From positions 46,244 through 110,243 of the forward strand of contig CALYAY010000002.1 of the NCBI GenBank assembly GCA_944393695.1: 64,000 nucleotides of DNA. Direction: 5' to 3'. The stretch's first letter is position 1. The number at the start of each line of letters is the position of its first letter. The DNA is from an uncultured Alphaproteobacteria bacterium. Lineage in GTDB: Bacteria; Pseudomonadota; Alphaproteobacteria; RF32; CAG-239. Shown here piece after piece: positions 27,504 to 43,980 of the stretch. The notes below the pieces were generated by a model. The model was not told the DNA's origin, did no database searches, and saw only the letters and a program-made list of their open reading frames with translations. The position numbers and the translations under genes are program-made.

Positions 27504-28244
27504 ATGCTCAACAATAATTCCGCCTCCACTCTGGAAGTCTTCAATATCGGCAAAAAATACAAAAACCGCCCGGTTTTGCGCAACGTTTCGCTCAATGTCC
27601 GCCGCGGCGAGGCCGTCGGCCTGCTGGGGCCAAACGGCGCCGGCAAAACCACTTGTTTTTACTGCGTCACCGGCCTGATTACTCCGGATTACGGCGATGT
27701 TCACATTGACGGCCGCGACATCACCAACCTGCCCATGTACCGCCGCGCCCGCATGGGCATCGGCTATCTACCGCAGGAAGCCTCTATTTTCCGTTCGCTT
27801 TCCGTTGAAGACAATATCAAAGCCATTCTTGAAGTAGTGGTTGACAACATCAGCGAAAGAGAAAACATGCTTGAACAGTTGTTGTCCGAATTTTCCATTG
27901 CCCACCTGCGCAAATCTCCGGCGATTGCCCTTTCCGGAGGTGAGCGCCGCCGTCTGGAGATTGCCCGCGCCCTGGCCAGTCAGCCGAAATTCATTTTGCT
28001 TGACGAACCTCTGGCCGGCATCGACCCCATTGCCGTGGGAGAAATTCGCACGCTGGTTTCCCAGCTCAAAAACCGCGGACTGGGCGTGTTAATTACCGAC
28101 CACAATGTTCGTGAAACCCTTGATATTATTGACCGCGCCTATATCTTACACGGCGGTTCGGTTTTAATGGAAGGTTCCCCTTCCGAAATTGTTGCCAGCA
28201 AGGAAGTCCGCAAAGTATACCTCGGCGATAATTTCTCAATGTAA
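27504..28244 (+). CDS. lptB: LPS export ABC transporter ATPase LptB
   Basis: Walker A GPNGAGKTT, ABC signature LSGGERRRLEIARAL, Walker B ILLDEP. Confidence 0.9.
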   Translation: MLNNNSASTLEVFNIGKKYKNRPVLRNVSLNVRRGEAVGLLGPNGAGKTTCFYCVTGLITPDYGDVHIDGRDITNLPMYRRARMGIGYLPQEASIFRSLSVEDNIKAILEVVVDNISERENMLEQLLSEFSIAHLRKSPAIALSGGERRRLEIARALASQPKFILLDEPLAGIDPIAVGEIRTLVSQLKNRGLGVLITDHNVRETLDIIDRAYILHGGSVLMEGSPSEIVASKEVRKVYLGDNFSM

Positions 28245-28268
28245 AACCTCAGTTTTCACCTCAGGGAG

Positions 28269-29795
28269 TTGTTGCAGACCATGGCCGTCACGCCAAAACT
28301 GGAAATAAAACAATCGCAGTCGCTGCTCATGACTCCCCAGCTGCGCCAGGCCATAAACCTGTTGCAGATGAACAATATTGAGTTGGCCTCCCTGATTGAA
28401 AACGAGCTGGCCTCCAATCCCCTGCTCATCAGCGAAGCCGAAAGCCTGAACGACTTTTCCCCGGACGGACAATCATCAAAAGAGCAATCCATTGACGACT
28501 ACGATGCCCCCTCTCCCCAAAGCGAAGAGGAAACCTTTTCCCCCGACATTGATTACACCACCGCCTTTGACGACGACTTTGGCTCTGACCGTGAAGGCTA
28601 CGATTCCGCAACCGGCGACTACAACTGGCAGGATTATGCCCTGACCAAAACCCAAAACCGCGACCCTGACGGTAATTTCGATTTTTTTGAACAAAAGCTC
28701 AGCGACAAAAAATCCGTTTACCAATTAATCTCCGAACAAATTTCTCTGAAATTCACCCGGCCGGAAGAAAAGCTGATAGCCTTCCGCCTGGCCGAAAGCC
28801 TTGATGAGAGCGGCTATTTCCGCGGCAACATATCAGATATTGCCCGCCAGTTGCACATTTCGGAACCCCGCGTCGCCAATGTACTGAAAACACTCAAAAG
28901 CTTTGAACCATCCGGCCTGTTTGCCGAAAACCTCGCCGAGTGCATTGCCCTTCAGCTGGCTGACGACAACCGGCTGTCCCCGCTCATGCAGCAGCTGCTC
29001 ACCCGTCTGGACTTAATCGCCGAACATCGACACAAAGAGCTTTGCAGGCTTCTGAACATCTCCGAAGAGCAGCTGACCGCCATGCTGGCACAAATCCGTT
29101 CAGTCAATCCAAAACCTGCCGCCGGGTTTGAAACCGGCTTCACCTCTTATATCATTCCCGATGTTTTCGTCCGCCGGACCAAACCGCATTTTTACACCGT
29201 TGAGCTCAACAATCTGTCTCTGCCCCGGGTTTTAATCGACCACCGTTATTATGCCGAAATCAACCGGCTTGCACCTCAGGACAAAGCAACCCGTAAATTT
29301 CTGAAAAACAACCTCGGCAGTGCAAATTTTTTAATCCGGGCTCTTCACCAGCGCGCTCAGACAATCCTGCGGGTCAGTGAAGAAATCGTAAAAATGCAAT
29401 ATGACTTTTTCGAAAAAGGCATTGACGGCCTCCGCCCCATGACACTGAAAGACATTGCCGCTGCTGCTGAAATTCACGAAAGCACCGTCAGCCGCGTCAC
29501 CAGCGGAAAATACATGCACACGCCGCGGGGCATTTTTGAACTGAAATACTTTTTCTCTGCTGCTGCCGGCTCCTTCAGCGGAGACGACACCACCACCGTC
29601 ACCGGCATTAAACACACCATAAAAAAACTGATTGAGCAGGAAACCCCTGACGACATCTTATCTGATGACAAACTTTCCGAACTCCTGGCCCGTCAAGGTC
29701 TGAAAGTCGCCCGCCGCACCATTGCCAAATACCGCGAAAGCCTGAATATTCCTTCCTCCGCCGCCCGCAAACGAGCCAAACGGAATTTTAAATAA
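28269..29795 (+). CDS. rpoN: RNA polymerase sigma-54 factor
   Basis: 508 aa. N-terminal Gln/Leu-rich region I. C-terminal RpoN box ARRTIAKYRE. Confidence 0.95.
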   Translation: MLQTMAVTPKLEIKQSQSLLMTPQLRQAINLLQMNNIELASLIENELASNPLLISEAESLNDFSPDGQSSKEQSIDDYDAPSPQSEEETFSPDIDYTTAFDDDFGSDREGYDSATGDYNWQDYALTKTQNRDPDGNFDFFEQKLSDKKSVYQLISEQISLKFTRPEEKLIAFRLAESLDESGYFRGNISDIARQLHISEPRVANVLKTLKSFEPSGLFAENLAECIALQLADDNRLSPLMQQLLTRLDLIAEHRHKELCRLLNISEEQLTAMLAQIRSVNPKPAAGFETGFTSYIIPDVFVRRTKPHFYTVELNNLSLPRVLIDHRYYAEINRLAPQDKATRKFLKNNLGSANFLIRALHQRAQTILRVSEEIVKMQYDFFEKGIDGLRPMTLKDIAAAAEIHESTVSRVTSGKYMHTPRGIFELKYFFSAAAGSFSGDDTTTVTGIKHTIKKLIEQETPDDILSDDKLSELLARQGLKVARRTIAKYRESLNIPSSAARKRAKRNFK

Positions 29796-29849
29796 AACTT
29801 CCCGCCCTTGTCTTTCCGTTAAGAAAGAAAAAGGCAGCGGGAAAAAGGG

Positions 29850-30287
29850 TTATTCAACATCCCAGGGAAAAACTATCCACTGTTCGGGAAGAGCACGGGC
29901 AAAAATACCGGCATCCGCACCCCCCTGAGGTTTGGCATAAACACAGGCAAAATGAGCCTGCGGAAATTTTTTACGGAGAATCTGAAAAGTACGTCCGGTA
30001 TCTGCCAGATCATCAACAATCAAGGTATGCTCATCAACGACATCTATATGACACTCAAGCTCAATGTCTTCATCCCGGCGGCGTTCGTAATTGTGGTCAT
30101 AGCTGGACATGTTGATGGTCTGGGTCTTGCGGATATCCAGCTCATAGGCCAGTATTCCGGCCGGAAGCAAACCTCCCCGGCTGACCGCGATGATTTGCGA
30201 ATAATTTCCTGAAACTCTGATTTTATCGGCAAGATTCTTAACATCACGATGAAAATCCTGCCAGCTGATATAATATTTTTCGCTCAT
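29850..30287 (-). CDS. gpt: xanthine-guanine phosphoribosyltransferase
   Basis: 145 aa. AVSRGGL.P, SSYDH, and the PRPP-binding VDDLADTG motif. Confidence 0.8.
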   Translation of the reverse strand: MSEKYYISWQDFHRDVKNLADKIRVSGNYSQIIAVSRGGLLPAGILAYELDIRKTQTINMSSYDHNYERRRDEDIELECHIDVVDEHTLIVDDLADTGRTFQILRKKFPQAHFACVYAKPQGGADAGIFARALPEQWIVFPWDVE

Positions 30288-30296
30288 TACCTGTCC

Positions 30297-30824
30297 TTAG
30301 CCGTGTTGTGCTTTTATTTTGTAAATATATTCGATTACTTTGTTGTCATCCCATTCGGCAGCCCCGCGGATACGTCCGATTTCTTTGCCCTGCCGATTAA
30401 CCAGAACGGTGTTGGGCGATGTGAATATACCGAGGTCAGAGGCCAGATTGCTGTGTTCATCAGTATAAAACTCCATGCCGTCGGCTCCGAATTTGTCAAG
30501 GAACTCTCGCTGTTCAAAGCTGTCTTTCCATTCCTGGGACGGAGAAATCAGAATAACCCTGATACCGTTTTCCTGCGTTTTGAGGGCAAAATTTTTAACC
30601 TCATCCAGTTCTTTTATGCAGGGAACACAATGACGGGACCAAAACATGGCCAGAACAAAATCATCCGGAAAAGAATCAAGGCTGATTTGTGCTCCGTCAG
30701 AACGGGTGACTTTACGTTCGGGCAAATCCCGCGGCGTGTCGTAAATATTAACGCCTTTTTGTGCCGCAGCGGCCGAAAAGGTAAAACTTACGGCCAGTAA
30801 TATAGAGCATATTTGTTTTATCAT
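30297..30824 (-). CDS. TlpA/ResA-like periplasmic thiol:disulfide oxidoreductase (thioredoxin fold)
   Basis: Start placed at MIKQICSILLAVSF (signal peptide). CxxC active site WSRHCVPC. The ORF track's N-terminal extension has no support. Confidence 0.7.
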   Translation of the reverse strand: MIKQICSILLAVSFTFSAAAAQKGVNIYDTPRDLPERKVTRSDGAQISLDSFPDDFVLAMFWSRHCVPCIKELDEVKNFALKTQENGIRVILISPSQEWKDSFEQREFLDKFGADGMEFYTDEHSNLASDLGIFTSPNTVLVNRQGKEIGRIRGAAEWDDNKVIEYIYKIKAQHG

Positions 30825-30908
30825 CTTGATAACTGAAATATAAGTTTTGAGTTTATCCCTGATTAAGAGTATATAATGTTTATATTTAGAATAAAAAGGT
30901 TTCAAAAT

Positions 30909-31041
30909 TATGAATAATAAAGTGTTTTTATGTGCGGTGCTGGCCGTGGTTATTTTTGCGGGATTGACGGGATGCGGCAAAATTTCCAAGCCGGAACCTT
31001 ATGAAGGCAGCGGATATCCTCATTCATATCCGCGCTATTGA
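30909..31041 (+). CDS. small putative lipoprotein (44 aa)
   Basis: MNNKVFLCAVLAVVIFAGLTGC lipobox. Below the ORF-track size cutoff. Confidence 0.3.
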
Positions 31042-31056
31042 TAAAGGATAAAATCT

Positions 31057-31746
31057 ATGGCGGAAGAAAGCAACAAATATATTGACGAGATGATTCCCTA
31101 TGTGGAATTTGCCGATAATGCCAATGAGCGGACACCGTGCGTGCTGGTGCTGGATTGTTCAGGTTCAATGCGCGGTGAACCGATTAAGCAGCTTAACACC
31201 GGGTTGAAAGCCCTGGAAAAGGAACTGAAAGAAGACATAGACGCCAGTTCGCGGGTGCAGCTGCTGATTATCAAAGCTTTTGGCAAAGATGAAGCCGTTG
31301 TATCTTCGGACTGGATTGATGCCATGAATTTCGAGGCACCGGAGATGGAAGCCGGAGGACTGACGCCTCTGGGTAAAGCCATGGAACTGGCTTTGCAAAA
31401 AATAGAAGAGCAAAAGTGTTTGTATGACAGCTGCGGTATTACCTCCAAACGACCGTGGATTTTTCTTATCAGCGACGGAGAACCGACAGATTATGACTGG
31501 GAGATTATTGCAGAAAAGTGCCGTTATGCCCAGAAGAATAAAAAAGTCGTTATTCATGCGGTGGGAACTCAGGGAGCAAACCTGGAAAAACTGGCCAAGT
31601 TTTCAACCATAGCTCCGAAGCGTTTGAGCGGACTAAAATTTACCGAATTCTTTTTGTGGTTGTCGCGCAGTGTTTCCTGTGTTTCAAAGGCGGCACCGAA
31701 CGTTCCGGATTTGTTGGAAGATACGGATGACTGGAATGCGAAGTAA
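31057..31746 (+). CDS. von Willebrand factor A domain protein, TerY-like
   Basis: 229 aa. MIDAS motif VLVLDCSGSM, later SDGEPTD. AAGGA SD. Stop overlaps the start of the PP2C gene. Confidence 0.8.
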   Translation: MAEESNKYIDEMIPYVEFADNANERTPCVLVLDCSGSMRGEPIKQLNTGLKALEKELKEDIDASSRVQLLIIKAFGKDEAVVSSDWIDAMNFEAPEMEAGGLTPLGKAMELALQKIEEQKCLYDSCGITSKRPWIFLISDGEPTDYDWEIIAEKCRYAQKNKKVVIHAVGTQGANLEKLAKFSTIAPKRLSGLKFTEFFLWLSRSVSCVSKAAPNVPDLLEDTDDWNAK

Positions 31747-32476
31747 AGTCAGGGTAGTGGCGGCCAGTGTATGCGGCCCGATGCACCGCTACCGGAAAAT
31801 GCCTTGTCAGGATTGTTTTAAGCACAAAACCGGCCGGCGCAATTTTGTGGCCGTGGTGTCTGACGGAGCCGGATCGGCCCGGTATGGCAAAATCGGAGCA
31901 CGGGTAGTCTGCGAAACATTAACCGATTTGCTGGCGGAATGTGATTTTTCAACGGTCAAAACCCGGATTGTGCAGGCAATTGAAACCGCCCGCGGCCGGC
32001 TTATCAGACATCGGTTTAACAAACAAAAAAATACAGAAGGACTGCTTGATTTTTCGGCAACCCTGGTGGGAGCCGTATGCAACCGCGGACGAGGAATGTT
32101 CTTTCATATCGGCGACGGAGCCGGTATTGCCCTGAGCAACGGAGATTATGAACATTTCGTGGCAACCAGGCCGGAAAACGGAAATTTTGCCTGCGAAACT
32201 TTCTTTTATACCATGGATGACTGGAAAGAGAGCCTGCGTTTTACAACATTTGAAAATGCCAGCACATTATTTTTGATGACCGACGGGGTGACAAATTTTG
32301 CCTTTTCGCCGGACTACCGGCATATTGAGAAAGGTTTTATTGCTCCGATTAATGATTTTTTGCAAAAGGATATGTCAAAAGGCAAAGCCGTATGGGCGCT
32401 GAACAATACGCTGAACACACCGCAGGCAAAAAAACTGAATTCTGATGACAAGACTTTGTTATGGGCACAGTTATGA
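31727..32476 (+). CDS. PP2C-family Ser/Thr protein phosphatase
   Basis: Motifs VVSDGAGSARYG, HIGDGAG, LMTDGV. Start MTGMRSK overlaps the vWA gene's last codons. Confidence 0.75.
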   Translation: MTGMRSKVRVVAASVCGPMHRYRKMPCQDCFKHKTGRRNFVAVVSDGAGSARYGKIGARVVCETLTDLLAECDFSTVKTRIVQAIETARGRLIRHRFNKQKNTEGLLDFSATLVGAVCNRGRGMFFHIGDGAGIALSNGDYEHFVATRPENGNFACETFFYTMDDWKESLRFTTFENASTLFLMTDGVTNFAFSPDYRHIEKGFIAPINDFLQKDMSKGKAVWALNNTLNTPQAKKLNSDDKTLLWAQL

Positions 32477-33942
32477 TTGAACAGCCGGATTTGGAAAATA
32501 TAACTTATTCCGCCATTTATGCCGACGGGCGGTTTGAGCGGATTACTTTGGGCAGCATGGTTAACAAAGGCGGTGCCGCAGGGCGGATTTATCTGGTAAA
32601 GGATTATCCGTTGCTGGTGGCAAAAATTTTTCACAGCCGCAACCGGAGTTCTTCCAATCGCAAAAAGCTGGAAGCCATGCTGTTAAACCGTCCAGATTTT
32701 CCGCCGGCAGTCAAAGACGGCGTGGAATATGTGCAAATTGCCTGGCCGGTAGCGGTTTTGGAGGATGAAGACGGTTTCTGCGTCGGTTATCTGATGCCGC
32801 TGATAAAAATGGACGAGGCAGTGTCTCTGGATCATCTGATGCAAAAAGCCATCCGCAAAAAGCTTGGGCTTTCGGAAAAATATTCATATCGGATTTTTGC
32901 GGCATATAATGTGTCATCGATGGTAGCGGCATTGCATGAGGCCGGACATTATATCGTGGATTTAAAACCGTCCAACGTATCGGTATATCGTGATACAATG
33001 ATGGTCGCGATGGTAGATTGCGACGGTTTTTCGATTAAGGGCGAAAGAGGAACCCGTTATCCGGCCGATTTTGTCAGCGAAGAATATATTTATCCGGAGG
33101 GAATGGAACAGTCCTGTGACGAGATGGGCGAAGAGCAGGATAAATTTGCATTGGCGGTGATGATTTTTAAGCTGTTGAACAGCGGCATACATCCGTTTTC
33201 GGGTGTACCGCGCAAAACCGACAGCGAAATGCTGACCATTCAAAACAGAATTGCCCAATATCATTATGCCTACGGATTGTGGCCGGATACTTATCAGGCC
33301 CCGCATCCGTATTCTATTCACGAATATTTTGACAAGAAAACCCTGGAATTGTTTGAGCGGGCGTTTGTGCGCGGCGGAGTCCGGCCTTCGGCGCAGGAAT
33401 GGAAGGAACATTTGCATTATCTGCTGCATCATTTGCGGAATTGTCCGAAGAATCCCGACCATGTTTATTTTACCTCAAAGGGCTGCGGTTTGTGCATGGC
33501 AGAAGAAAGATTTCGCGGTGTCCTGCAGGATGTGAAAAAACAAAAGGAAACACCTTTGAAACTGCGGGGAATGGAGGTTTCGGAAATATCGGTAGAAAAA
33601 ATGAACCGCGAAAAAGCCGAAAAAATCAGCGAAGATGCCAAAATCAGACGCTGGACTTTGACCGGGGTGGGCGTTTATCTGCTGTTTTTCGGCCTGTTAT
33701 TCAAAATTCTGGCTCCGGCAACGGAATTTTTACAGAAAATCGGACTCGGAATCCAAGCGGTTATCGTTACTTTTATAATGCTGGGAATTAATACCTTTAT
33801 CCGTAAATACCGTGAGAAACTGCCTTTGCTGCAGAATCGGGCATTGGCACAGATGTTGCAGGTCTATGCGCTTATCTGCATCATTATCGTGCTGGTAACG
33901 CTGAACGACATTCCCAAAGGGCTGTTATTGCCGGCTTTGTAA
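32461..33942 (+). CDS. Hanks-type Ser/Thr protein kinase with three C-terminal TM helices
   Basis: 493 aa. Catalytic loop VDLKPSN, DCDGF (DFG-like), APE-like region. C-terminal hydrophobic helices. Start overlaps the PP2C stop. Confidence 0.8.
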   Translation: MGTVMIEQPDLENITYSAIYADGRFERITLGSMVNKGGAAGRIYLVKDYPLLVAKIFHSRNRSSSNRKKLEAMLLNRPDFPPAVKDGVEYVQIAWPVAVLEDEDGFCVGYLMPLIKMDEAVSLDHLMQKAIRKKLGLSEKYSYRIFAAYNVSSMVAALHEAGHYIVDLKPSNVSVYRDTMMVAMVDCDGFSIKGERGTRYPADFVSEEYIYPEGMEQSCDEMGEEQDKFALAVMIFKLLNSGIHPFSGVPRKTDSEMLTIQNRIAQYHYAYGLWPDTYQAPHPYSIHEYFDKKTLELFERAFVRGGVRPSAQEWKEHLHYLLHHLRNCPKNPDHVYFTSKGCGLCMAEERFRGVLQDVKKQKETPLKLRGMEVSEISVEKMNREKAEKISEDAKIRRWTLTGVGVYLLFFGLLFKILAPATEFLQKIGLGIQAVIVTFIMLGINTFIRKYREKLPLLQNRALAQMLQVYALICIIIVLVTLNDIPKGLLLPAL

Positions 33943-34055
33943 AGAGAAAAGAAAGATTATTTAGGGAAAATCGGCATATTTTGCTACACAAATCGTTTTT
34001 TTTATGCTAGTGTCAGCTCAGTTGTGTAAATTTTGTTAATTAACAGGAAAAAACA

Positions 34056-35444
34056 TTGATTAATTTAAATCCGATTGTCCTTTCAGGAAAGGAAGTTTTG
34101 CCGCTGATCGAGGGCGGAAAGGGCATTAATGCCAGCAACGGTTTCAGCTCGGGCGCCTGGGCCAGAGAAAACTGTGTGGGAACATTTTCCGGCGTCAGCC
34201 CCGATTTTTATGATGAAAAGGGCAATGTCGTTCTTGAAAGATTTTTCAAGAAAAACCGCAAAGAGCGTCATGAAGAAATGGTGGAATATGCCATCAGGGG
34301 CGGTGTGGCTCAGGCGGAAGTGGCTCATGAACTGTCAAACGGAAACGGCCGTATCCACATGAACATGCTCTGGGAAATGGCGGATTCCGAAAGAATGCTG
34401 ACCGGTGTTCTGGAACGGGCCAAAGGTTTAATCCACGGAATCACCTGCGGAGCCGGACTGCCGTATCATCTGGGCGAGCTGGCTTCAAAGTTTGGTGTGT
34501 ATTATTACCCGATTGTTTCATCGGCGCGGGCTTTTCAGGTGTTGTGGAAAAGAGCTTATTCCAAATTTACCGAATATCTGGGCGGTGTGGTATATGAAGA
34601 TCCGTGGCTGGCCGGCGGACATAACGGTCTGTCAAATGCCGAAGATCCCGATAAGCCGCAAAAACCTTATGAACGGCTGGTGGAGCTGCGCAGATTCCTG
34701 ACAAGCATTAATCTGAAAGAACTGCCGATTATTCTGGCCGGCGGCGTGTGGTCGCTGGACGAATGGAAAGATTATATTGATAATCCGGACATCGGAAAAA
34801 TTGCTTTTCAGTTCGGCACCCGGCCGATGATTACCAAAGAAAGCCCGATCAGCGATGCCTGGAAAAAAGTGATGATGCAGGTTAAGAAGGGTGATGTCAT
34901 TTTGCAGAAATTCAGCCCGACGGGATTCTTTTCTTCAGCAATTAAAAATACCTTTCTGGAACGTCTGATTGAGCGCAAACAGGGTGAAGTGGCTTTTTCC
35001 GCCGAGGCAAACACCGAGTTTTCTCATCCGCTGTCCATTAACGAGCGGAAAACGGTTTATATTAAACAGGAAGATGTTTCCAAAGCCGAGCAGCAGCTGA
35101 GCGCCGGTTTTACGGACATTCAGGAAACACCCGACAACACGGTAGTGTTTATGACCCCGGAAGAAGTTAAGCAGATGAAACAAGACCGTGCAAACTGCGT
35201 GGGATGTTTATCGCAATGCCAGTTTTCCACCTGGTCAAAAGCCAGCGGAACCACGGGAAAACTACCGGATCCGCGTTCATATTGCATTCACAAGACGCTT
35301 TATGAAGTGGGACACGGCGGCAGCGTGAAAGATCACCTGTTGTTTGCCGGACATCAGGTTTACCGGTTTGCAACGGATCCGTTGTATCGAAACGGGATTC
35401 CCTCGGTGAAAGAACTGATTGAACGGATAAAAACCGGACAATAA
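34056..35444 (+). CDS. FMN-dependent TIM-barrel oxidoreductase, nitronate monooxygenase (NMO)-like (TTG start)
   Basis: 462 aa. Gly-rich N-terminal motif PLIEGGKGINAS and later ILAGGVWSLDEW resemble NMO/FabK-type proteins. Family assignment is from memory and is uncertain. Confidence 0.45.
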   Translation: MINLNPIVLSGKEVLPLIEGGKGINASNGFSSGAWARENCVGTFSGVSPDFYDEKGNVVLERFFKKNRKERHEEMVEYAIRGGVAQAEVAHELSNGNGRIHMNMLWEMADSERMLTGVLERAKGLIHGITCGAGLPYHLGELASKFGVYYYPIVSSARAFQVLWKRAYSKFTEYLGGVVYEDPWLAGGHNGLSNAEDPDKPQKPYERLVELRRFLTSINLKELPIILAGGVWSLDEWKDYIDNPDIGKIAFQFGTRPMITKESPISDAWKKVMMQVKKGDVILQKFSPTGFFSSAIKNTFLERLIERKQGEVAFSAEANTEFSHPLSINERKTVYIKQEDVSKAEQQLSAGFTDIQETPDNTVVFMTPEEVKQMKQDRANCVGCLSQCQFSTWSKASGTTGKLPDPRSYCIHKTLYEVGHGGSVKDHLLFAGHQVYRFATDPLYRNGIPSVKELIERIKTGQ

Positions 35445-35663
35445 TCAAAAACGGGCCTCGGATGATGATTTGAGGCCCGCTTTTGATGAACGGAAAAAAC
35501 AAAAGAAGTAAATCCCGCTTACCCGGTAAATCAAAGATAAAAAACAAATCCACGAGTTTTTTATTGACTTTTAGCTAAATTTAAGCTTGATTATACACAC
35601 TGACCGGTGTTAAGATTAATGCCTGAGAAGTAAGATTTTTTAATATTTTGTAAGGAATAAATT

Positions 35664-36239
35664 ATGAACATTACATTGACTGGAAAACAGGTTGATATTG
35701 GTGACAGACTGCGCAAACATGTTGAAGAAGGTATCTTAAGCTCCGTCAACAAATACTTTCCTGCCCCGATCAGCTGCACCGTGGCTTTTGCCAAAGAAGG
35801 CGAAGAATTTCTTGCGGAAGTAACGGTTCATCCTGCAAAGAATATCGTATTAAAAGGCTCCAGCGAAGCTTGTGCCGATCCTTACTCTGCTTTTGATTCT
35901 GCCAATCAGCACATCGCCATCCGCCTGCGTCGTCACAAAAACAAACTCAATGACCACAAAGGCAAAGCCGGCCTGGCCGAAGCCGAGATTGCGCACGAAG
36001 CCGTTTATCCTTTAATCGAAACCGAAGATGAAATGGACATCAATATGGATGCCCCGCTGACCATTGCCGAGACCGAAGCCAATATTCCGGTTTGCACCGT
36101 CAGTGAAGCCGTAATGCACATGGATCTTGCCGATGAATGCGCCATTTTGTTCAAAAACAGTGCCAACGGCCATATCAGCATGGTATACCGCCGCAAAGAC
36201 GGCAACATCGGATGGGTCGAACCTAAATCCGACAACTAA
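35664..36239 (+). CDS. hpf: ribosome hibernation promoting factor (long form)
   Basis: 191 aa, MNITLTGKQVDIGDRLRKHVEE.... Canonical neighbour of rpoN and ptsN. Confidence 0.85.
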   Translation: MNITLTGKQVDIGDRLRKHVEEGILSSVNKYFPAPISCTVAFAKEGEEFLAEVTVHPAKNIVLKGSSEACADPYSAFDSANQHIAIRLRRHKNKLNDHKGKAGLAEAEIAHEAVYPLIETEDEMDINMDAPLTIAETEANIPVCTVSEAVMHMDLADECAILFKNSANGHISMVYRRKDGNIGWVEPKSDN

Positions 36240-36267: not shown

Positions 36268-36711
36268 ATGAAAATTTCTGATATTATCAAAAAAGACCGC
36301 ATTTTTATCGGACTGAAAGCGGGAAGCAAGCGCCAGTTGCTGCAGGAGCTGGCACAAAAGGCAGCCCAAGTTACCGGTCTCAGCGACCGCACTGTTTTTG
36401 ACGCTCTTTTGGAACGTGAAAATCTGGGATCTACCGGTTTTGGCGGCGGAACGGCTTTGCCGCATGCCCGTCTTGAAGACCTGAAAGAAATTTACGGTTT
36501 CTTCGTCAGATTAAATTCTCCGATAAACTTTGATTCCGTAGACAACCGGGCTGTTGACCTGGTTTTCATGCTGTTGTCGCCGGATGCCAGCGGGGCTGAT
36601 CATCTGACCGCTCTGGCTCAGGTTTCCCGCCTGCTGAAAGATGAAGGCACTTGCGAAAAACTTCGTCAGGCTGTTTCGGAAGAAGAAGTTTATGCTTTGT
36701 TAAACAACTAA
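36268..36711 (+). CDS. ptsN: PTS IIA-Ntr nitrogen regulatory protein
   Basis: 147 aa with the PTS EIIA type-2 fold motif (GSTGFGGGTALPHAR). Confidence 0.85.
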   Translation: MKISDIIKKDRIFIGLKAGSKRQLLQELAQKAAQVTGLSDRTVFDALLERENLGSTGFGGGTALPHARLEDLKEIYGFFVRLNSPINFDSVDNRAVDLVFMLLSPDASGADHLTALAQVSRLLKDEGTCEKLRQAVSEEEVYALLNN

Positions 36712-36732
36712 CCGTTCAAACTTCTCTGTCTT

Positions 36733-36776
36733 CCCCTTAAGTCAATCGTCTTAAGGGGATTTTTTATTTTTTTTAA
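36733..36776 (+). terminator. Rho-independent terminator after ptsN
   Basis: CCCCTTAAG...CTTAAGGGG followed by a T-run. Confidence 0.6.
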
Positions 36777-36841
36777 TCATTATTTTAGATATTTCCCTTA
36801 AAATATCTCCCAGATTATAACAACGTTTTAAGGACTGTTTC

Positions 36842-37897
36842 ATGCTCACTTTTATGACTGACCTTGTCCCGGTGCGGGCACTTTGGGCTTTTTTTACGGC
36901 ACTGATTATTGCTTTGGCAGTCGGAAGTCGTTTTATTGAATTTTGCCGTCATCACCAAGGCAAAGGCCAGCCTATTCGCGAAAGCGGTCCTCAAAGCCAC
37001 CTGCAAACCAAAAAAGGTACCCCGACCATGGGCGGCCTGCTCATTATCGGCGCCTCACTGACTTCGGCTCTGCTATGGTGCCGGCTCGACAATATTCATT
37101 TGTGGAGTTGTCTTTTTGTTTATCTGGCTTATGCCGCCATAGGCTTCACTGATGATTATCTCAAAGTCACAAAAAATACCAGCATAACCATCAGCGGCAA
37201 ACTCCGCCTCATTCTTGAATTTACCATTTCGCTGGCGGCTGTTGCAGCAGTTTCCTGGCTGAACCGCGGCCAACCGGATCAATTTGAACTAAACATCCCC
37301 TATTTCACGGATTTGAGTCTCAACCTTTGCTGGTTTTATATTCCTTTTGCCATGTTTGTCATTGTCGGCAGTGCCAATTCGGTCAACCTCAGTGACGGTC
37401 TTGACGGTCTGGCCGGCGGCCTGTGCATCATCGCTTTTGCCGCCTTTATGATTATTGCTTATCTCTGCGGCTCGGATTTTTATGCTTACTTCAATCTTTC
37501 CCCTGTTTTCCAAAGCAGCGAACTGGCCGTTCTTTGTGCGGCCGTGATCGGCGGTTGCGCCGGATTTCTGTGGTTTAATGCGCCGCCCGCCAAAATTTTC
37601 ATGGGAGACACCGGCTCGCTGGCTCTGGGCGGCCTGCTGGGCATGATTGCCGTCTGTACCCGGCATGAAATCATTCTCGCGGTCATCGGCGGTATTTTTG
37701 TTATTGAAGCACTTTCCGACATTATTCAGGTTTTCTGGTATAAACGCACCAAGCGCCGCGTTTTTCTGATGGCACCGATTCATCATCACTTTGAACAGCT
37801 GGGCTGGAAAGAAACCACGGTGGTTCTGCGCTTTTGGCTTGTTGGTCTGATGCTGGCGCTTCTCGGCCTGGCTTCTCTCGGCTGGACGGGAGCCTGA
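36842..37897 (+). CDS. mraY: phospho-N-acetylmuramoyl-pentapeptide transferase
   Basis: 351 aa multi-TM protein with MraY motifs (KKGTPTMGG, NxxNxxDGxDGL). Confidence 0.9.
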   Translation: MLTFMTDLVPVRALWAFFTALIIALAVGSRFIEFCRHHQGKGQPIRESGPQSHLQTKKGTPTMGGLLIIGASLTSALLWCRLDNIHLWSCLFVYLAYAAIGFTDDYLKVTKNTSITISGKLRLILEFTISLAAVAAVSWLNRGQPDQFELNIPYFTDLSLNLCWFYIPFAMFVIVGSANSVNLSDGLDGLAGGLCIIAFAAFMIIAYLCGSDFYAYFNLSPVFQSSELAVLCAAVIGGCAGFLWFNAPPAKIFMGDTGSLALGGLLGMIAVCTRHEIILAVIGGIFVIEALSDIIQVFWYKRTKRRVFLMAPIHHHFEQLGWKETTVVLRFWLVGLMLALLGLASLGWTGA

Positions 37898-37901
37898 TAA
37901 C

Positions 37902-39032
37902 ATGCGTTTTTCCCGCAACAGCCGCAATATTTTCAGCAACTGGTGGTGGACCGTTGACAAGGTTCTGCTGGCGATGATAACCATTTTGCTCATCATCGGT
38001 ATTTTTCTGAATTTTTCTGCCAGTCCCGCCGTGGCCAACCGTATCGGTGCCGCCACTTTTCACTTTGTCAAACGTCAGCTGTTTTTCATTCCGCTGGCTT
38101 ATGCGCTGATGTTGTTTTTATCCGTACAAAAGCTCAAAACCATCCGCCGTATTGCCATTATTGGTTATTTTGTGGTTATTGCCCTTATGGTACTGACCTT
38201 GTTTTGGGGAGAAGAAACCAAAGGTGCCTCCCGCTGGATTCGCATCTTTGGTTTTTCATTGCAGCCCTCCGAATTTGTAAAACCGATGTTTGCCGTTGTT
38301 GCCGCCTGGCTGTTTAACGGCCAGAAGCAGCATAGCGATTTTCCGGGAGACACTTTGTCTTTCGGACTTTATTGCCTTACCATTTTTTTGCTGGCTCTTC
38401 AACCGGATATCGGTATGTCCATTGTTATTACCGCCATTTGGGGATTCCAGTTTTTCTTAAGCGGTTTGTCGCTGTTGTTCGTCGGCTTGCTCATCGGCGG
38501 CGGTCTGGGACTTTTGGTCATTGCTTATTTTTCATTTGACCATGTTCATACCCGCGTCAACCAGTTTCTGGCCTCTGACGGCGAACTCAGCTATCAGGTG
38601 CGCAAATCGCTGGAAGCTTTTTCCAATGGTCACTTTTTTGGCATGGGCCCGGGCGAAGGCATCGTCAAAGTAAACATCCCCGATGCCCACACCGATTTTA
38701 TTTTTGCGGTTGCCGGAGAAGAATTCGGCCTGTTTCTTTGCCTTATCATTGTCGGAATTTATGCCGCAATTGTGATTCGCGCCATGCTTATAGCCATTCG
38801 CGAGAACAATATGTTTATCATGCTGGCCGCGGCAGGACTGGCTGCTTCTTTCGGTCTGCAAGCAATTATTAACATGGCATCAACTCTTCACCTGATGCCC
38901 ACCAAAGGCATGACTCTGCCCTTTATTTCTTACGGCGGTTCCTCTCTGCTGGCGTCCGCCCTGGGCATGGGCATGCTTTTGGCCATTACCCGGAAAAATG
39001 TAAACGCGGAGGATAAAGATGAACTCGACTGA
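37902..39032 (+). CDS. ftsW: cell division protein FtsW (SEDS family)
   Basis: 376 aa, 10-TM SEDS pattern, sits between mraY and murG. Confidence 0.85.
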   Translation: MRFSRNSRNIFSNWWWTVDKVLLAMITILLIIGIFLNFSASPAVANRIGAATFHFVKRQLFFIPLAYALMLFLSVQKLKTIRRIAIIGYFVVIALMVLTLFWGEETKGASRWIRIFGFSLQPSEFVKPMFAVVAAWLFNGQKQHSDFPGDTLSFGLYCLTIFLLALQPDIGMSIVITAIWGFQFFLSGLSLLFVGLLIGGGLGLLVIAYFSFDHVHTRVNQFLASDGELSYQVRKSLEAFSNGHFFGMGPGEGIVKVNIPDAHTDFIFAVAGEEFGLFLCLIIVGIYAAIVIRAMLIAIRENNMFIMLAAAGLAASFGLQAIINMASTLHLMPTKGMTLPFISYGGSSLLASALGMGMLLAITRKNVNAEDKDELD

Positions 39033-40155
39033 CAAAACAGATACACCCCAAACTTCTTCGGAAGAAAAAAAACTGATTATACTCACCGCAGGCGGTACCG
39101 GCGGTCACGTTTATCCTGCCGAAGCATTGGCTGAAGAACTGTTGCGTCGCGGCTACCGGTTGGCTCTGGTTACCGATTCCAGAGGAAAAGACAACTACCG
39201 CGGCACTCTGGGAAAAATTCCCAATTATGCCGTTATGGCCGGCGGCATGGTCGGCAAATCCGAACTCACCAAACTGCAAAGCTTGGGCAAAATCTTTATC
39301 GGCATTCTGCAATCCTGCCTCATTCTACTCCGCCACAAACCGGCCTGCGTTATCGGCTTTGGCGGCTATGCTTCCTTTCCCTGCGCCATGGCCGCGGTGT
39401 TGCTGGGCATCAAACTGATTATTCACGAACAAAACTCGGTCATGAGCCGCACCAACCGTTTCTTGAGCAAATATGCCGTGCTCATCGCCCAAAGTTTCAA
39501 AAAAGTCAAACATACACCGGCAGGAGTAAAAACCGTCCTCACCGGCATGCCCGTCCGCCAGAATATTGTTGAGCTCAACAAACGCGGTTATCCCCGGCCC
39601 GGAGCAAACGATCCGCTGCAGCTTCTCATTCTGGGCGGCAGTCAGGGCGCCAAAATTTTCGGACAGATTCTGCCTTCGGCTTTATCCCTCTTGCCCCCGG
39701 AGACTGCAAAGCGGCTGAAAATTTATCAGCAATGCAACAAAGACATGAAAGACGATCTGAAAAAAATCTACAAGGAAACATCTCTGAATGTCACGGTTTC
39801 TCCGTTTTTTGAAAACATGGCCGAACTTTATGCCTCGACCAACGTTATCATCTCACGGGCCGGTGCTTCCTCGGTCAGCGAAATTGCCGTTGCCGGTATT
39901 CCATCGATTCTGGTGCCGCTGCCCACTGCCGCTGATGACCATCAGACCGGCAATACTCATGACCTGGCTGCCGTCGGCGGGGCAATTGTCATCCCCCAAA
40001 CTGACTTTACTGCCGGCAAAGTAGCCAATATCCTGACATCCCTCTTAACCGACGGCGAACAACTTGAAAAAATGTCCCGGGCTGCCCGCCAGGTGGCCAT
40101 TAGTGATGCGGCGATTCGTTTTGCCGATGCCGTGGAAACCGAAATTCAAGCCTGA
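39019..40155 (+). CDS. murG: UDP-GlcNAc:lipid I GlcNAc transferase MurG
   Basis: 378 aa, GGTGGHVYPA N-terminal motif. Confidence 0.9.
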   Translation: MNSTDKTDTPQTSSEEKKLIILTAGGTGGHVYPAEALAEELLRRGYRLALVTDSRGKDNYRGTLGKIPNYAVMAGGMVGKSELTKLQSLGKIFIGILQSCLILLRHKPACVIGFGGYASFPCAMAAVLLGIKLIIHEQNSVMSRTNRFLSKYAVLIAQSFKKVKHTPAGVKTVLTGMPVRQNIVELNKRGYPRPGANDPLQLLILGGSQGAKIFGQILPSALSLLPPETAKRLKIYQQCNKDMKDDLKKIYKETSLNVTVSPFFENMAELYASTNVIISRAGASSVSEIAVAGIPSILVPLPTAADDHQTGNTHDLAAVGGAIVIPQTDFTAGKVANILTSLLTDGEQLEKMSRAARQVAISDAAIRFADAVETEIQA

Positions 40156-40168
40156 AAGACCCCAAAAC

Positions 40169-41098
40169 ATGTTTAACCGCCTCTTTGAAAAAAAACATTC
40201 CGACAGCCTGATTGATCTTTTGCCCGGGGTACGCGGCCGCTACAAAAAAGACGAGCCCCTGAAAAAATACACCTGGTTTGCCGTCGGCGGCCCGGCAGAA
40301 GTTATGTATATTCCGGCAGATATTGAGGATTTGGCTTTTTTCATGAGCACCCGCCCGCATAATCTGCCGATTCTGGTTCTCGGCGGCGGCGCCAATCTTC
40401 TGGTGCGTGACGGCGGAGTTCCGGGCGTAGTCATCAAGCTGGCCTCTCCGGAATTCAAAAAATATTCCCTCGGAGATCATACCATTACCTGCGGCTGCGG
40501 TATGTATAATGTTGATTTGCAAAAAATCATGATTGAAAACCGCATCGGCGGCCTGGAATTTTTATCTACCATTCCCGGAACCATCGGCGGCTCGGTCAAA
40601 ACCAATGCCGGTTGTTATGGACGTGAAGTCAAAGACGTTATTATCAGCGTCCGCATTGTCAACGGCACCGGTGAAATCCGCGACATTCCCGTTAACGAGC
40701 TGATGCTTTCTTACCGCAGCAGCTTCTTTCCTGAAGACTGGATAATCACATCCATCACCTTCCGTACCACCCCAGACACTCCCGAAAACATTGCCCGAAC
40801 CATTGCCGAACAAAAGAAAAAACGCTTAAAAAGCCAGCCCCACAATGTGAAGACGGCCGGTTCGACATTTAAGAATCCGGAAGGACTTAAAGCCTGGCAG
40901 CTGATAAAAAAAGCCGGCTGCGACCATCTCAGCATCGGCAAAGCCAAAGTCTCCGAAGTACACTGCAATTTTCTGGTAAACACCGGCGGTGCTTCAGCCC
41001 GCGACATTGAAACCCTCGGCGAAGAAATCATCCGCCGCGTCAGGGAACAAACTTCCATTACATTAGAATGGGAAGTCAAACGCGTCGGAGTTTATTAA
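40169..41098 (+). CDS. murB: UDP-N-acetylenolpyruvoylglucosamine reductase
   Basis: FAD-binding domain (WFAVGGPAE..., LGGGANLL). Start placed at MFNRLFEK just after the murG stop. The ORF track's extension overlaps murG. Confidence 0.85.
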   Translation: MFNRLFEKKHSDSLIDLLPGVRGRYKKDEPLKKYTWFAVGGPAEVMYIPADIEDLAFFMSTRPHNLPILVLGGGANLLVRDGGVPGVVIKLASPEFKKYSLGDHTITCGCGMYNVDLQKIMIENRIGGLEFLSTIPGTIGGSVKTNAGCYGREVKDVIISVRIVNGTGEIRDIPVNELMLSYRSSFFPEDWIITSITFRTTPDTPENIARTIAEQKKKRLKSQPHNVKTAGSTFKNPEGLKAWQLIKKAGCDHLSIGKAKVSEVHCNFLVNTGGASARDIETLGEEIIRRVREQTSITLEWEVKRVGVY

Positions 41099-41103
41099 AA
41101 ACC

Positions 41104-41949
41104 ATGCCCCGGTCTGCCAAAGAAAATAATCGCATCAGTCTGCCCCTGGAATGGCCTTATCGTCTTCTGGGCAATCTGGTTATTCTCGGTATTATTTTTT
41201 TTCTGGCCTCAATAACCGTTACGATCAAAACCGATCTGATTAACAAAAAACTGCTCAATCTCCAGGATTCTTTTTATCGTTTTACCACTGATCTCGGTTT
41301 TACCGTTGAGGATATTGTCGTCAGCGGCCGCCGTCACACCGGCATGGACGAAATCCGCTCGGCACTGAACATTGACCGCCGCACCAATATCCTCCGGCTT
41401 AATCTGGATGAAATTCGTGAACGTCTGGAGCAGCTGCCCTGGATTCGCAAGGTTGTTGTCCGCCGCAGTTTTTTTCCTCATACCCTTTATATCGGAATTC
41501 TCGAATATACGGTTAAAAGTCTCTGGCAATACAACGGAAAATTTCATCCCATCGGCGAAAACGGACAAATTATCAATGCTGATTACATTCCCCGCCGCCC
41601 GGTTTTGCTGATTGTCGGCGCCGGGGCTCCCGAAAACATCAGCAAACTTCTTCCCGTCATAGAAAAAGACAAAGATATCTTCCGCCGTGTGAAAGTGGCC
41701 GTTTATGTTTCCGGCCGCCGGTGGAATCTCATTCTTGACCACATCAGTCACGGAATCGTTATCAAACTCCCCGAAACCGGCGTCCGGGAAGCTTGGGAAA
41801 AACTGATTAAATTAAACCGTTCCAAAAACATTCTTAAACGTAAATTAACCAACATTGATTTAAGATTAAAAGGAAAAGTTATCGTAAAGCTTGAAAAGTC
41901 GGATTCTGCGGCCGCCAAAAAGCGCAAAGCCAAAGAAAGCAAAATCTGA
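41104..41949 (+). CDS. ftsQ: cell division protein FtsQ
   Basis: N-terminal TM helix then a POTRA-like region. Start at MPRSAKENN just after the murB stop. Confidence 0.75.
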   Translation: MPRSAKENNRISLPLEWPYRLLGNLVILGIIFFLASITVTIKTDLINKKLLNLQDSFYRFTTDLGFTVEDIVVSGRRHTGMDEIRSALNIDRRTNILRLNLDEIRERLEQLPWIRKVVVRRSFFPHTLYIGILEYTVKSLWQYNGKFHPIGENGQIINADYIPRRPVLLIVGAGAPENISKLLPVIEKDKDIFRRVKVAVYVSGRRWNLILDHISHGIVIKLPETGVREAWEKLIKLNRSKNILKRKLTNIDLRLKGKVIVKLEKSDSAAAKKRKAKESKI

Positions 41950-41962
41950 GGAAAGGAAGAAA

Positions 41963-43216
41963 GTGACACATTCATTTAACCGTCTGACCACCATTGCCGC
42001 TCTGGATATCGGTTCATCCAAAGTTTGCTGCATCATTGCCAAAATCAGCCGGGACAAACGAATCAATGTTGTCGGTTATGGTTATAACGCTTCCAAAGGC
42101 ATAAAAAACGGCGTTATCACCGATCTCAACCAGGCCACGCTTTCTGTCTGCAATGCCGTAGAAACCGCCGAACAAATGGCCAACGAACGCATCGACCGGG
42201 TTATTGTGAATATTTCCGGCGATAAAATCAAAAGCGTTATCAAAAGTGCCTCTATTTCGCTGAACAAAAACCACCCCGTCAATGAAAACGACATAAACAA
42301 AGTCATCAGCAAAGGCATCAACAAAATTAACGTTGAAGGCAATGAGCTGATTCACTGCCTGCCCATGAGCTACCGCTGCGACCGGGGAGAAGAAATCAAA
42401 GATCCGCGCAACATTTTCGGCGAAGAACTTTCCGTTGACATTCTGCTGGGACTTATCCCCGACAACATGTTCAAAAACATCGGAACCGTTATCGAAAACG
42501 CCCATCTTGAAATTGCCGAAAAAGCCTTCACGGCTTATGCCTCCGGCCTTTCCTGCCTGGTTGAAGACGAAATGGAACTCGGCGCCACGGTCATTGACAT
42601 CGGCGGCGGCACCACCAGCATCTGTTCGTTTAAGCACGGCCATCCCACTTATTTTTCGGCGCTTCCCGTCGGCGGCAACAATGTCACCAACGATATTGCT
42701 TGGGGACTGACCACTTCGACAACTCATGCCGAACGTCTTAAAACCCTTCATGGCTGTGCTTTTCTCACCAGCAAAGACAAGGAAGAAACCATCAACGTTT
42801 ATCCCGTGGGCGAAGAAGACGACAGTTCCATCAAACAGGTTCCCAAAGCCGAACTCATCAGCATTATCACGCCCCGCATTGAAGAAATCTTTGAGCTTGT
42901 TAATCACAAACTTGAAAAACATGGTCTCCGTGGCATATCCAGCCACCGTATTGTCCTGACTGGCGGCGGCAGCTGCTTGTCCGGAATCCGCGATGTTGCT
43001 TCCATGGTGCTCGACAAACAGGTACGCCTCGGCCGCCCGCGCAACATGCTTAACCTGCCGGACAATCTGTGCAATCCGGCTTTTTCAACGGCTGTCGGAT
43101 TACTGCTGTTTGCCCTGAACTATACCGAAAAGAAACCCGGCAAAATCATTAATAAGCCAACACGCTCGACAACCGGACTGGGGCATATTTTCGGCTGGAT
43201 GAAGCAAAATTTCTGA
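41963..43216 (+). CDS. ftsA: cell division protein FtsA (GTG start)
   Basis: Actin-like ATPase (ALDIGSSKV...). The GTG at 41963 follows an AGGAAG SD and the ftsQ stop. The ORF-track start at 41891 overlaps ftsQ. Confidence 0.8.
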   Translation: MTHSFNRLTTIAALDIGSSKVCCIIAKISRDKRINVVGYGYNASKGIKNGVITDLNQATLSVCNAVETAEQMANERIDRVIVNISGDKIKSVIKSASISLNKNHPVNENDINKVISKGINKINVEGNELIHCLPMSYRCDRGEEIKDPRNIFGEELSVDILLGLIPDNMFKNIGTVIENAHLEIAEKAFTAYASGLSCLVEDEMELGATVIDIGGGTTSICSFKHGHPTYFSALPVGGNNVTNDIAWGLTTSTTHAERLKTLHGCAFLTSKDKEETINVYPVGEEDDSSIKQVPKAELISIITPRIEEIFELVNHKLEKHGLRGISSHRIVLTGGGSCLSGIRDVASMVLDKQVRLGRPRNMLNLPDNLCNPAFSTAVGLLLFALNYTEKKPGKIINKPTRSTTGLGHIFGWMKQNF

Positions 43217-43259
43217 TAACAAAAAGGCCGGGGGAATAATCTTCCCTCAGCCCTTTTTT

Positions 43260-43817
43260 TTATTCTCCCTCCAGATACATCACCGGCCGGACATGACATA
43301 ATTCTCCGCCGCCGTAAATGTCCGAGGAAGCGTTGTCAAAACCAATAATCCATGGTGCAATACCCGGTCCTCTTTTTCCGCTTGCAGTATCGGCCCAATA
43401 ACCTTTATGGTCTGTTTTTATAGCCACCAAGGGTTTCCCGCCGACACTTTCCAGCTTTTGATTCAGAGCCTCAAAATAAGGTGCAACCTTTTGCTCCAAA
43501 CCGGCACGTGGCAAGGTAGTTGCTCTTCCTGCAATTTCAACCTTACGGCAATAATCACAGGCCCGGTCAAAATTCATCAGAGTATCAGCATCCTTCAGTG
43601 CAAAAACCACCAGGCCGCAGCGCACTCCTTCAATTTTTCCGTTCTCTCCGCGATAAGGCTCAATCAATTTTCCGAGGTCAACATTTTTTTCTTCGTTTTT
43701 GGGTTCTTTGAACTGTACTTTTGTCACAGTTTTCTTTCCGAACTTTTCAAACAATCTGTCGGCAAACACTCCGGCAACAAAAGAGACAAAGCTGGTAAAC
43801 AAAATTTTTTTATCCAT
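43260..43817 (-). CDS. Secreted/anchored single-domain DUF1566/Lcl-C-like protein
   Basis: 185 aa. N-terminal hydrophobic anchor. C-terminus TLPRAGLEQ...YWADT...APWIIGFDN...CHVRPV is homologous to the VRPV(I/L)EF-ending domains at 3822 and 49130. Lies on the opposite strand between ftsA and ftsZ. Confidence 0.55.
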   Translation of the reverse strand: MDKKILFTSFVSFVAGVFADRLFEKFGKKTVTKVQFKEPKNEEKNVDLGKLIEPYRGENGKIEGVRCGLVVFALKDADTLMNFDRACDYCRKVEIAGRATTLPRAGLEQKVAPYFEALNQKLESVGGKPLVAIKTDHKGYWADTASGKRGPGIAPWIIGFDNASSDIYGGGELCHVRPVMYLEGE

Positions 43818-43980
43818 AATTGTACAATTTAATAATAAAACGATACAGTCGGTATACTCGCTGTTAACATTTTTGTCAACTCAAAAAACTCTCAAAAAAA
43901 TCCCTTCGCTAACCATTGCTTAATCAATTTTTTTTATACTGAACCCAATCAAAAAAGACCTATTTGGGAGAAGAATAATA

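Follow-up and report, generated by a model that had tools for sequence, protein, structure and literature searches.

A family-conserved seven-gene cluster between rpoN and hpf in an uncultured gut alphaproteobacterium: a probable relocation within the genome

The linkage of rpoN, the gene of sigma-54, with hpf and ptsN is among the most stable gene neighbourhoods in Proteobacteria. In its canonical form, as in E. coli and most Alphaproteobacteria, the region reads lptC-lptA-lptB-rpoN-hpf-ptsN. The present study deals with a stretch of 64 kb from contig CALYAY010000002.1 of an uncultured alphaproteobacterium (GTDB lineage RF32; CAG-239), referred to here as the window, in which kdsD-lptC-lptA-lptB-rpoN and hpf-ptsN are intact and in the usual orientation, whereas rpoN and hpf lie 5.87 kb apart, as opposed to about 0.1 kb in the canonical region, and are separated by seven unrelated genes, two of them convergent with rpoN. 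Three of the seven genes recall the TerY-P triad, which, in the account given in PMC10542128, combines a TerY-like vWA protein with a PP2C phosphatase and with a Ser/Thr kinase that bears a zinc ribbon at its C-terminus, and which is predicted to act as a metal-sensing phospho-switch (Anantharaman et al., 2012); this module and yegL-pphC-yegI are also treated in bioRxiv 10.1101/303594 and 10.1101/819920. The same three domain types occur in the TerY-P anti-phage defence system (Gao et al., 2020), for which PADLOC models exist. For the last gene before hpf, a flavoprotein of the NMO family, the closest counterpart among solved structures is FabX of H. pylori (7E1Q), which holds a [4Fe-4S] cluster with the ligands C300/C304/C308/C320 (PMC8626469).

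The initial annotation of this DNA had described seven genes between rpoN and hpf, and this was confirmed: they occupy 5868 bp (29795 to 35664), and the coordinates and gene identities given for the interval hold in Pfam and NCBIfam (Table 1). On its two sides the canonical order is kept, with lptB directly 5' of rpoN and ptsN directly 3' of hpf, but the distance from rpoN to hpf far exceeds the spacer of about 0.1-0.4 kb expected of the canonical neighbourhood. The same arrangement was found in eight of eight conspecific contigs, which were independently assembled from several samples and show 96-100% nucleotide identity (L081-L086, L093, L094). The window is 100% identical to one of them, the ENA metagenome scaffold L082, and to five more, from other samples, its identity is 98.5-99.97%; the related contigs come mostly from human-gut metagenomes. 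Since eight independent assemblies share the junctions, these are not an assembly artefact, and the arrangement is fixed in the species. We propose that a native cluster was moved within the genome and inverted into the rpoN-hpf spacer in the lineage of this one species, a reading to which we assign a probability of about 80%.

The comparison with relatives was carried out at several depths. An RpoN scan of the GTDB species representatives returned at least 80 alphaproteobacterial loci, the best match among those listed being 55% identical, and closer relatives were obtained by searching a collection of 5.8 billion proteins and inspecting their contigs. In 80 of 80 alphaproteobacterial loci among the matches listed, hpf and/or ptsN directly follow rpoN, and none of these loci carries a block gene within 10 kb of rpoN. 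In the protein collection the RpoN of this species forms its own 90% cluster, followed by a gap down to 55-63% identity, and the closest RpoN relatives, with 62-63% identity, belong to a sister clade (P0030, P0027; L182-L184). The order of the sister clade is fusA-rpsG-rpsL(-), then two small open reading frames (ORFs) with kdsD-lptC-lptA-lptB-rpoN, then after 93 bp hpf-ptsN, followed by mraY-ftsW-murG-murB-ftsQ-ftsA-ftsZ. It matches the gene order of the window over about 17 kb to either side, with only the block missing, and is the cleanest empty-site comparison available. In the deeper family relatives L014 and L175, rpoN is likewise followed by hpf-ptsN and then by DUF1150-HK-infA. The rpoN-hpf spacer measures 93-143 bp across all these relatives, that is, the 80 loci listed, L014, L175 and the sister clade. 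The order rpoN-block-hpf is the derived state, an insertion relative to every relative examined, and in this respect the initial annotation, which had proposed an insertion into a conserved rpoN-hpf-ptsN unit, is borne out. The possibility it had raised that the order might be typical of the lineage holds within the species, where all strains share it, and in no other lineage examined.

One contig appeared to offer an empty site within the same species (L087, ENA ERZ16268293 scaffold_30663) and was rejected. It is 2.9 kb long, shows 95.7% overall identity to lptB-rpoN, and its hpf begins 143 bp past rpoN. Its sliding identity amounts to 97-99.7% up to about position 29483 and to about 74% thereafter, with the break at about RpoN residue 408 in the conserved helix-turn-helix, and over the C-terminal 100 residues its RpoN shares 96% identity with that of another species (P0106). 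Because of this drop in identity and the match of the C-terminus, L087 is regarded as a chimeric assembly or an inter-species recombinant, and it was counted merely as a further lineage in which rpoN and hpf adjoin each other.

The second line of evidence is the place of the cluster in related genomes, which was surveyed in about 85 loci, namely the contigs of the best two non-self kinases (L088-L092) and 80 metagenome loci from a vWA scan. Homologues of the kinase with 53-80% identity number in the hundreds within this group of uncultured Alphaproteobacteria. In L088-L092 the genes stand as gpt(-), tlpA(-), small ORF(+), vWA, PP2C, kinase and NMO(+), in the order and orientation of the window, and in the 80 metagenome loci the cluster is intact wherever the locus is long enough, with gpt absent from more distant relatives. 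The gpt side of the cluster borders on a type IV pilus locus (T2SSF, pilins and a 321-aa PilT-like ATPase), and the opposite side on a pair of SH3_4 and peptidase M20 genes. The cluster occupies this pilus/SH3-M20 site in more than 40 distinct related loci, and rpoN, hpf, ptsN or lptB were never found near it in L088-L092 or the 80 metagenome loci. The pilins adjoining the cluster in L088-L174 are of the bundlin/PilS type. The block is a native seven-gene cluster that is conserved across the family and normally located at another place in the chromosome; it is neither accessory nor foreign. The label of an accessory block used in the initial annotation had to be given up, as the order and orientation of the cluster are conserved family-wide, its G+C content is that of the window, and neither mobility genes, repeats nor a closer donor were found in the searches described below.

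The strand composition of the window provides the third line of evidence. The G+C content of the block is 0.465 versus 0.467 for the whole window, so that the comparison of base composition suggested by the initial annotation revealed no deviation, and the unchanged value disfavours a foreign origin. The plus-strand GC skew is negative throughout the 64 kb, whatever the strand of the genes, and the only exception is the segment of 30-35.5 kb. At third codon positions (GC3) the plus-strand skew of six block genes is +0.16 (range +0.07 to +0.25), as opposed to -0.25 for the 66 other ORFs (sd 0.19; maximum +0.12), with a Mann-Whitney p of 5.6e-5 and a permutation p of about 1e-5 for such a six-gene run. 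The block is the only run of genes in the window with a reversed GC3 skew, and the local skew of hpf and ptsN is normal. In 13 relatives, which served as a control, the GC3 skew of the block agrees with that of its flanks in sign and size and is positive in some species and negative in others. Because it follows the flanks there, the block genes have no intrinsic skew bias. The block of the window bears the strand signature of the opposite orientation to replication, as an inversion predicts. Since the skew has not ameliorated, the move seems to have taken place long after the sister clade had split off. It predates the present diversity of the species, because all strains have the block, including L094 with its about 9% divergent vWA-to-NMO segment.

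The former neighbours of the cluster were also found in the window. The M20-SH3 pair, in inverted orientation with respect to the block, is found at a distance of 13 kb from it. The closest relatives have NMO(+), SH3(-) and M20(+) in this order, and therefore, in the orientation of the window, the block would be expected inverted and just to the right of SH3; the orientation implied by the skew agrees with the one derived from this pair. On that side of SH3, which bears the block in the closest relatives, there is a repeat-rich non-coding spacer of 406 bp, a candidate for the vacated site. Dispersed palindromic repeats, e.g. GTCATCCTCGGGTTAAACCCGAGGATCC and TGTCATCCCTCGTTCAGCGYCAGTCTGAACGTCAGGGGATC, are found in this spacer (48724-49129) and at 5342-5370, 61390-61800 and 63181-63449. 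They are intergenic and lie beside paralogous Lcl_C-like 271-aa genes (3825-4478, 49130-49945, 63419-64000), and a similar GTCATCCTCGG motif adjoins the block in the relative L088. These repeats may be elements resembling miniature inverted-repeat transposable elements or repetitive extragenic palindromes (MITE/REP-like) and may act as rearrangement hot spots.

According to the proposed sequence of events, the cluster would originally have stood between the type IV pilus locus and the SH3/peptidase-M20 pair, and a segment of 5.7 kb (about 29.80-35.55 kb) would have moved within the genome into the rpoN-hpf spacer, a move that would have flipped it relative to the direction of replication. The present position of SH3-M20, 13 kb downstream and inverted with respect to the block, would fit a hop and flip across the hpf-ptsN-dcw segment or two nested inversions; on another path the block would have been inserted together with SH3-M20, which would then have moved away, and all three paths would need similar numbers of breakpoints. 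The exact path, and any effect of the move on transcription, we infer rather than observe.

The junctions were located by comparing the spacer with those of relatives. The left one lies at about 29796-29806, at most about 10 nt after the rpoN stop codon, and the right one at about 35510-35551. The terminator-like hairpins that the initial annotation had placed at both borders are real according to folding (Table 1). A U-tract follows the left hairpin on the minus strand, which identifies it as the gpt terminator, while the right hairpin has an A-run before it and a U-run after it and serves the NMO-like gene as a bidirectional-type terminator. Hairpins also occur in relatives at these ends of gpt and of the NMO-like gene, with differing sequences. 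The block would have brought along a divergent promoter region and, at its ends, hairpin terminators of its own, and hpf would have kept the promoter-proximal half of the old spacer. The retained part of the spacer contains a TT(A/G)TTGACTTTT motif common to L175, L014 and L087, as well as the stretch adjacent to the ribosome-binding site. Since this hpf-proximal part was retained, hpf kept whatever promoter it had. A TTGACT at 35564-35569 is conserved upstream of hpf in the window and in relatives. A sigma-70 scan of 35445-35663 gave no consensus promoter, and the spacing of TTGACT to any -10-like hexamer is non-canonical in the window and relatives alike, for which reasons it is called a conserved element here and is not claimed to be a proven promoter. 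As the relatives already have a spacer with this motif, hpf may never have been dependent on read-through from rpoN. The uncoupling of hpf-ptsN from rpoN transcription that the initial annotation had suggested would be a possible effect of the insertion, and one that may be of little consequence.

Several points weigh against the proposed relocation or limit its detail. The hop of 13 kb is only one of several equally parsimonious paths, and the junctions show no repeats, scar sequences or microhomology beyond the 6-nt TCCCGC. L087, the sole apparent empty site in the same species, is unusable for the reasons given above. No pilus genes are present within the 64-kb window, and the donor site can therefore not be fully reconstructed. 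Among the recovered relatives none has the block beside SH3-M20 together with SH3-M20 beside ftsZ; after M20 come, in the relatives that were sampled, a lipocalin gene and genes for pili or porins in place of the dcw genes, which means that SH3-M20 has moved too in this lineage. A further contig with an M20 of 91% identity (P0269) stops inside SH3 and gives no view beyond it.

A horizontally acquired genomic island, i.e., accessory cargo integrated into the rpoN-hpf spacer as the initial annotation implied, would explain the interruption of a conserved operon-like unit. It could also be reconciled with the GC skew of the block, which is reversed against its surroundings, with the frequent occurrence of TerY-P-type triads in mobile and defence contexts (PMC10542128), and with the about 9% divergent lipoprotein-to-NMO haplotype of L094, from which it follows that DNA exchange occurs here. 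However, Pfam detected no integrase, transposase or other mobility genes among the block ORFs, there is no tRNA gene at the block (the nearest tRNA genes are at 55-57 kb in the window), and no significant direct or inverted repeats were found between the two junctions. Transposon-like borders were considered and rejected; the border sequences neither recur in the rest of the window nor resemble the flanks in relatives. Only the strand skew of the block is reversed, as an inversion would give, while its G+C content is that of the window. Compared with L088/L090, the block proteins have identities of 58-96%, a range that also includes the native neighbours (M20 80-81%, SH3 74-76%); the best non-self matches (kinase 79-80%, NMO 88%, vWA 96%) are no closer than those of the native M20 (81-82%), and in the lineages sampled by the 5.8-billion-protein collection there is no donor that is closer for the block proteins than for the native neighbours. 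Moreover, the cluster is vertically conserved across the family, its presence in all eight conspecific contigs leaves no presence/absence polymorphism, each block gene occurs once in the window, and SH3-M20, the native neighbours of the block, stand there by themselves. An island is accordingly improbable. The opposite assumption, that rpoN-block-hpf is ancestral for the family and that the relatives moved the block away, agrees with its occurrence in all conspecific strains, but was refuted by the outgroup comparison: rpoN and hpf are adjacent in outgroups at every depth (sister clade, L175, L014 and the 80 Alphaproteobacteria listed), the block stands at the pilus/SH3-M20 site in more than 40 distinct related loci, and its strand skew is out of equilibrium only in the window. 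We give this assumption next to no probability. The relocated cluster remains the reading best suited to these data, and the event is an ordinary rearrangement of the genome, specific to the species and involving no foreign DNA.

A different question is whether the relocation was of advantage. A perfect sigma-54 -24/-12 consensus, TGGCACAGATGTTGCA (TGGCAC-N5-TTGCA), is found at 33845-33860 (+), in the 3'-terminal part of the kinase gene and 211 nt before the NMO/FabX-like gene starts; the number of exact matches to be expected in a window is about 0.06. Five conspecific contigs have this site, and it is missing from L094 and from the homologous position of 38 distinct relatives. One could suppose that the relocation was adaptive and put a Ser/Thr signalling cluster and a FabX-like gene under the rpoN/hpf/ptsN neighbourhood, e.g., via this candidate site, which is exact, on the coding strand and lineage-specific, and the fixation of the block in the species would be in keeping with this. 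On the other hand, it is a single motif noticed post hoc inside a coding region, and sigma-54 matches with at most two mismatches are at chance level overall (35 found versus 36 expected). In addition, L094 lacks the motif and yet keeps the arrangement, no enhancer-binding protein or upstream activator site was identified, and fixation is equally compatible with neutrality. We therefore consider an adaptive relocation very doubtful. That the move was non-neutral in the wider sense, rewiring a TerY-P-like cluster and a FabX-like gene into a sigma-54/Hpf/PtsN hub of stress and nitrogen-phosphotransferase (nitrogen-PTS) functions, with the sigma-54 consensus as its visible trace, seems unlikely.

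The divergence within the species forms a mosaic. In L094 the segment from the lipoprotein to the NMO-like gene (about 30850-35600) is about 9% divergent between flanks of 97-100% identity, and in L093 the lpt-rpoN segment (about 27600-29800) has 88-96% identity, while the block is 99-100% identical. This pattern in L093 and L094 indicates frequent homologous recombination with divergent alleles.

Table 1. Position and assignment of the features at the rpoN-hpf interval and at the SH3-M20 pair, numbered from the first letter of the window.
Feature	Position	Strand	Basis
kdsD-lptC-lptA-lptB	upstream of rpoN; lptB 27504-28244		
rpoN (sigma-54)	28281-29795 (Pfam span 28269/28281-29795)	+	Pfam Sigma54_AID/CBD/DBD, all three sigma-54 domains
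Left border hairpin	29798-29848		fold -22.7/-21.7 kcal/mol, z -4.2/-3.0
gpt, xanthine(-guanine) phosphoribosyltransferase	29850-30287	-	Pfam Pribosyltran; NCBIfam NF006613
TlpA/ResA-like periplasmic thioredoxin-fold protein with signal peptide	30297-30824	-	Pfam Redoxin/AhpC-TSA
43-aa lipoprotein, lipobox LTGC	30910-31041	+	translation; tblastn
TerY/YegL-like vWA protein, MIDAS motif (DCSGS..T..D)	31057-31746	+	Pfam VWA
PP2C Ser/Thr phosphatase	31736-32476	+	Pfam PP2C_2, 1.6e-36
Ser/Thr kinase	32473-33942	+	Pfam Pkinase, 1.1e-9
NMO-family flavoprotein, putatively FabX-like	34056-35444	+	Pfam NMO; CxxCxxxC...C cluster motif
Right border hairpin	35451-35480		fold -28.1 kcal/mol, z -6.3; terminator scan also finds hairpin
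Retained part of the ancestral rpoN-hpf spacer	35552-35663	+	alignment to L175, L014, L087 spacers
hpf, long form (S30AE + C-terminal domain)	35664-36239	+	Pfam
ptsN (PTS_EIIA_2)	36268-36711	+	Pfam
Peptidase M20	47007-48122	-	tblastn 80-81% to L088/L090 neighbours; Pfam
SH3_4 protein	48220-48723	+	tblastn 74-76% to L088/L090 neighbours; Pfam
Repeat-rich non-coding spacer, 406 bp	48724-49129		candidate vacated site

The individual genes of the interval could be assigned with differing precision. The rpoN product comprises 504 aa, as called in the conspecific contigs. The gpt gene is a xanthine phosphoribosyltransferase at the equivalog level, with an NF006613 score of 146.6 bits above the cutoff of 138 (NCBIfam), and shows 53-68% identity to the corresponding gene of the cluster in relatives. 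For the TlpA-like gene, the TlpA/ResA matches of NCBIfam score under their cutoffs; an ORF extending to 30989 is too long, and the signal peptide begins with MIKQICS. The small lipoprotein ORF is considered a real gene because it is conserved at the same position in more than 60 related loci, with 41-74% identity (tblastn); gene calling on contigs includes it as well.

The genes of the triad overlap or abut and follow the order of E. coli yegL-pphC-yegI, and the vWA protein is 42% identical to E. coli YegL over 93% of the length (E 4e-38). The succession of vWA (with a MIDAS motif), PP2C and kinase genes is shared with the TerY-P and yegL-pphC-yegI modules, and in the translations the MIDAS and the catalytic motifs of the kinase (VAK, DLKPSN, DCDG) are intact. 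A Cys/His knuckle (CPx5H..CxxC; NCPKNPDH...GCGLC), seen as a sequence motif alone, follows the kinase domain at the place where TerY-P kinases have their zinc ribbon. In contrast to the TerY-P/YegI type, the C-terminus of the kinase is made up of three hydrophobic helices, which are predicted to lie in the membrane. The triad also differs from TerY-P in being part of a family-conserved cluster with TlpA-like, lipoprotein and FabX-like genes, with no ter genes nearby, and from the TerY-P/YegL type in the exceptional conservation of its vWA protein. The latter is 80-96% identical across species whose RpoN proteins share 55-63%, a level comparable to that of ribosomal protein S12 (RpsL, 96%), and its partners are far less conserved (PP2C 48-74%, kinase 53-80%). 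This near-ribosomal conservation suggests that the triad may belong to an essential, uncharacterised housekeeping signalling system in gut Alphaproteobacteria and not to a stress or defence module. The PADLOC models of the TerY-P defence system do not match any of the triad proteins at E <= 0.01, the kinase giving weak PD-T4-6 matches only, and the triad was therefore not filed under the system of Gao et al. Pfam detects no OB domain at the C-terminus of the kinase, where that system has an OB fold and the present kinase has the three hydrophobic helices, and, unlike a variable defence island, the cluster of the window is a stable core locus.

The NMO-like protein has its best solved homologues in the 7e1q/9lt5 group (E 7e-22, residues 6-313). 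The part that aligns with H. pylori FabX is the NMO-family FMN barrel, and C-terminal to the barrel there are four cysteines (CxxCxxxC...C) that recall the four [4Fe-4S] ligands of FabX. It differs from FabX in being about 100 residues longer, in an insertion before the Cys motif, and in the spacing of the cysteines. Judged by these features of its sequence, it is probably FabX-like.

The locus shows further rearrangements. An older, second synteny break spans 36712-52828, as L014 and L175 have ptsN directly followed by DUF1150-HK-infA, which in the window lie at 52829-53023(-), 53150-54787 and 54860-55078. The roughly 16 kb interposed after ptsN hold mraY...ftsZ, a 231-aa ORF, M20, SH3, a 271-aa ORF, GNAT, lepA and csp, and the junction of ptsN and mraY is common to the window and the sister clade (L182, L184). 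A 72-aa ORF at 52428-52646 was tried as the DUF1150 neighbour of ptsN and rejected; it is a cold-shock protein, and the DUF1150 orthologue is the gene given above. The division/cell-wall cluster (36842-45672) is reduced to mraY-ftsW-murG-murB-ftsQ-ftsA-ftsZ, without murD, murC and ddl, and lies on the strand that the GC skew marks as lagging. Between ftsA and ftsZ, a 185-aa ORF without a Pfam match (43260-43817) lies on the opposite strand (-), where the sister clade has only a gap of 131 bp (L182); here, too, a conserved gene pair has received a small lineage-specific insertion.

Among all loci examined, the separation of rpoN and hpf was seen only in this species. Such a clean, fixed and species-specific break represents a small natural experiment, according to which hpf-ptsN can work when it is not physically linked to rpoN; the probable reason is a promoter region that hpf already has to itself. 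It also provides a worked example of how an intragenomic relocation can be told from horizontal transfer by means of the GC3 strand skew, with relatives as a control, and family-wide synteny. As a by-product, the comparison yielded a TlpA-like/lipoprotein/vWA-PP2C-kinase/FabX-like cluster that is conserved across uncultured gut Alphaproteobacteria, and its unusually conserved TerY/YegL-like vWA protein may help to assign a function to the poorly understood YegL-PphC-YegI/TerY-P module.

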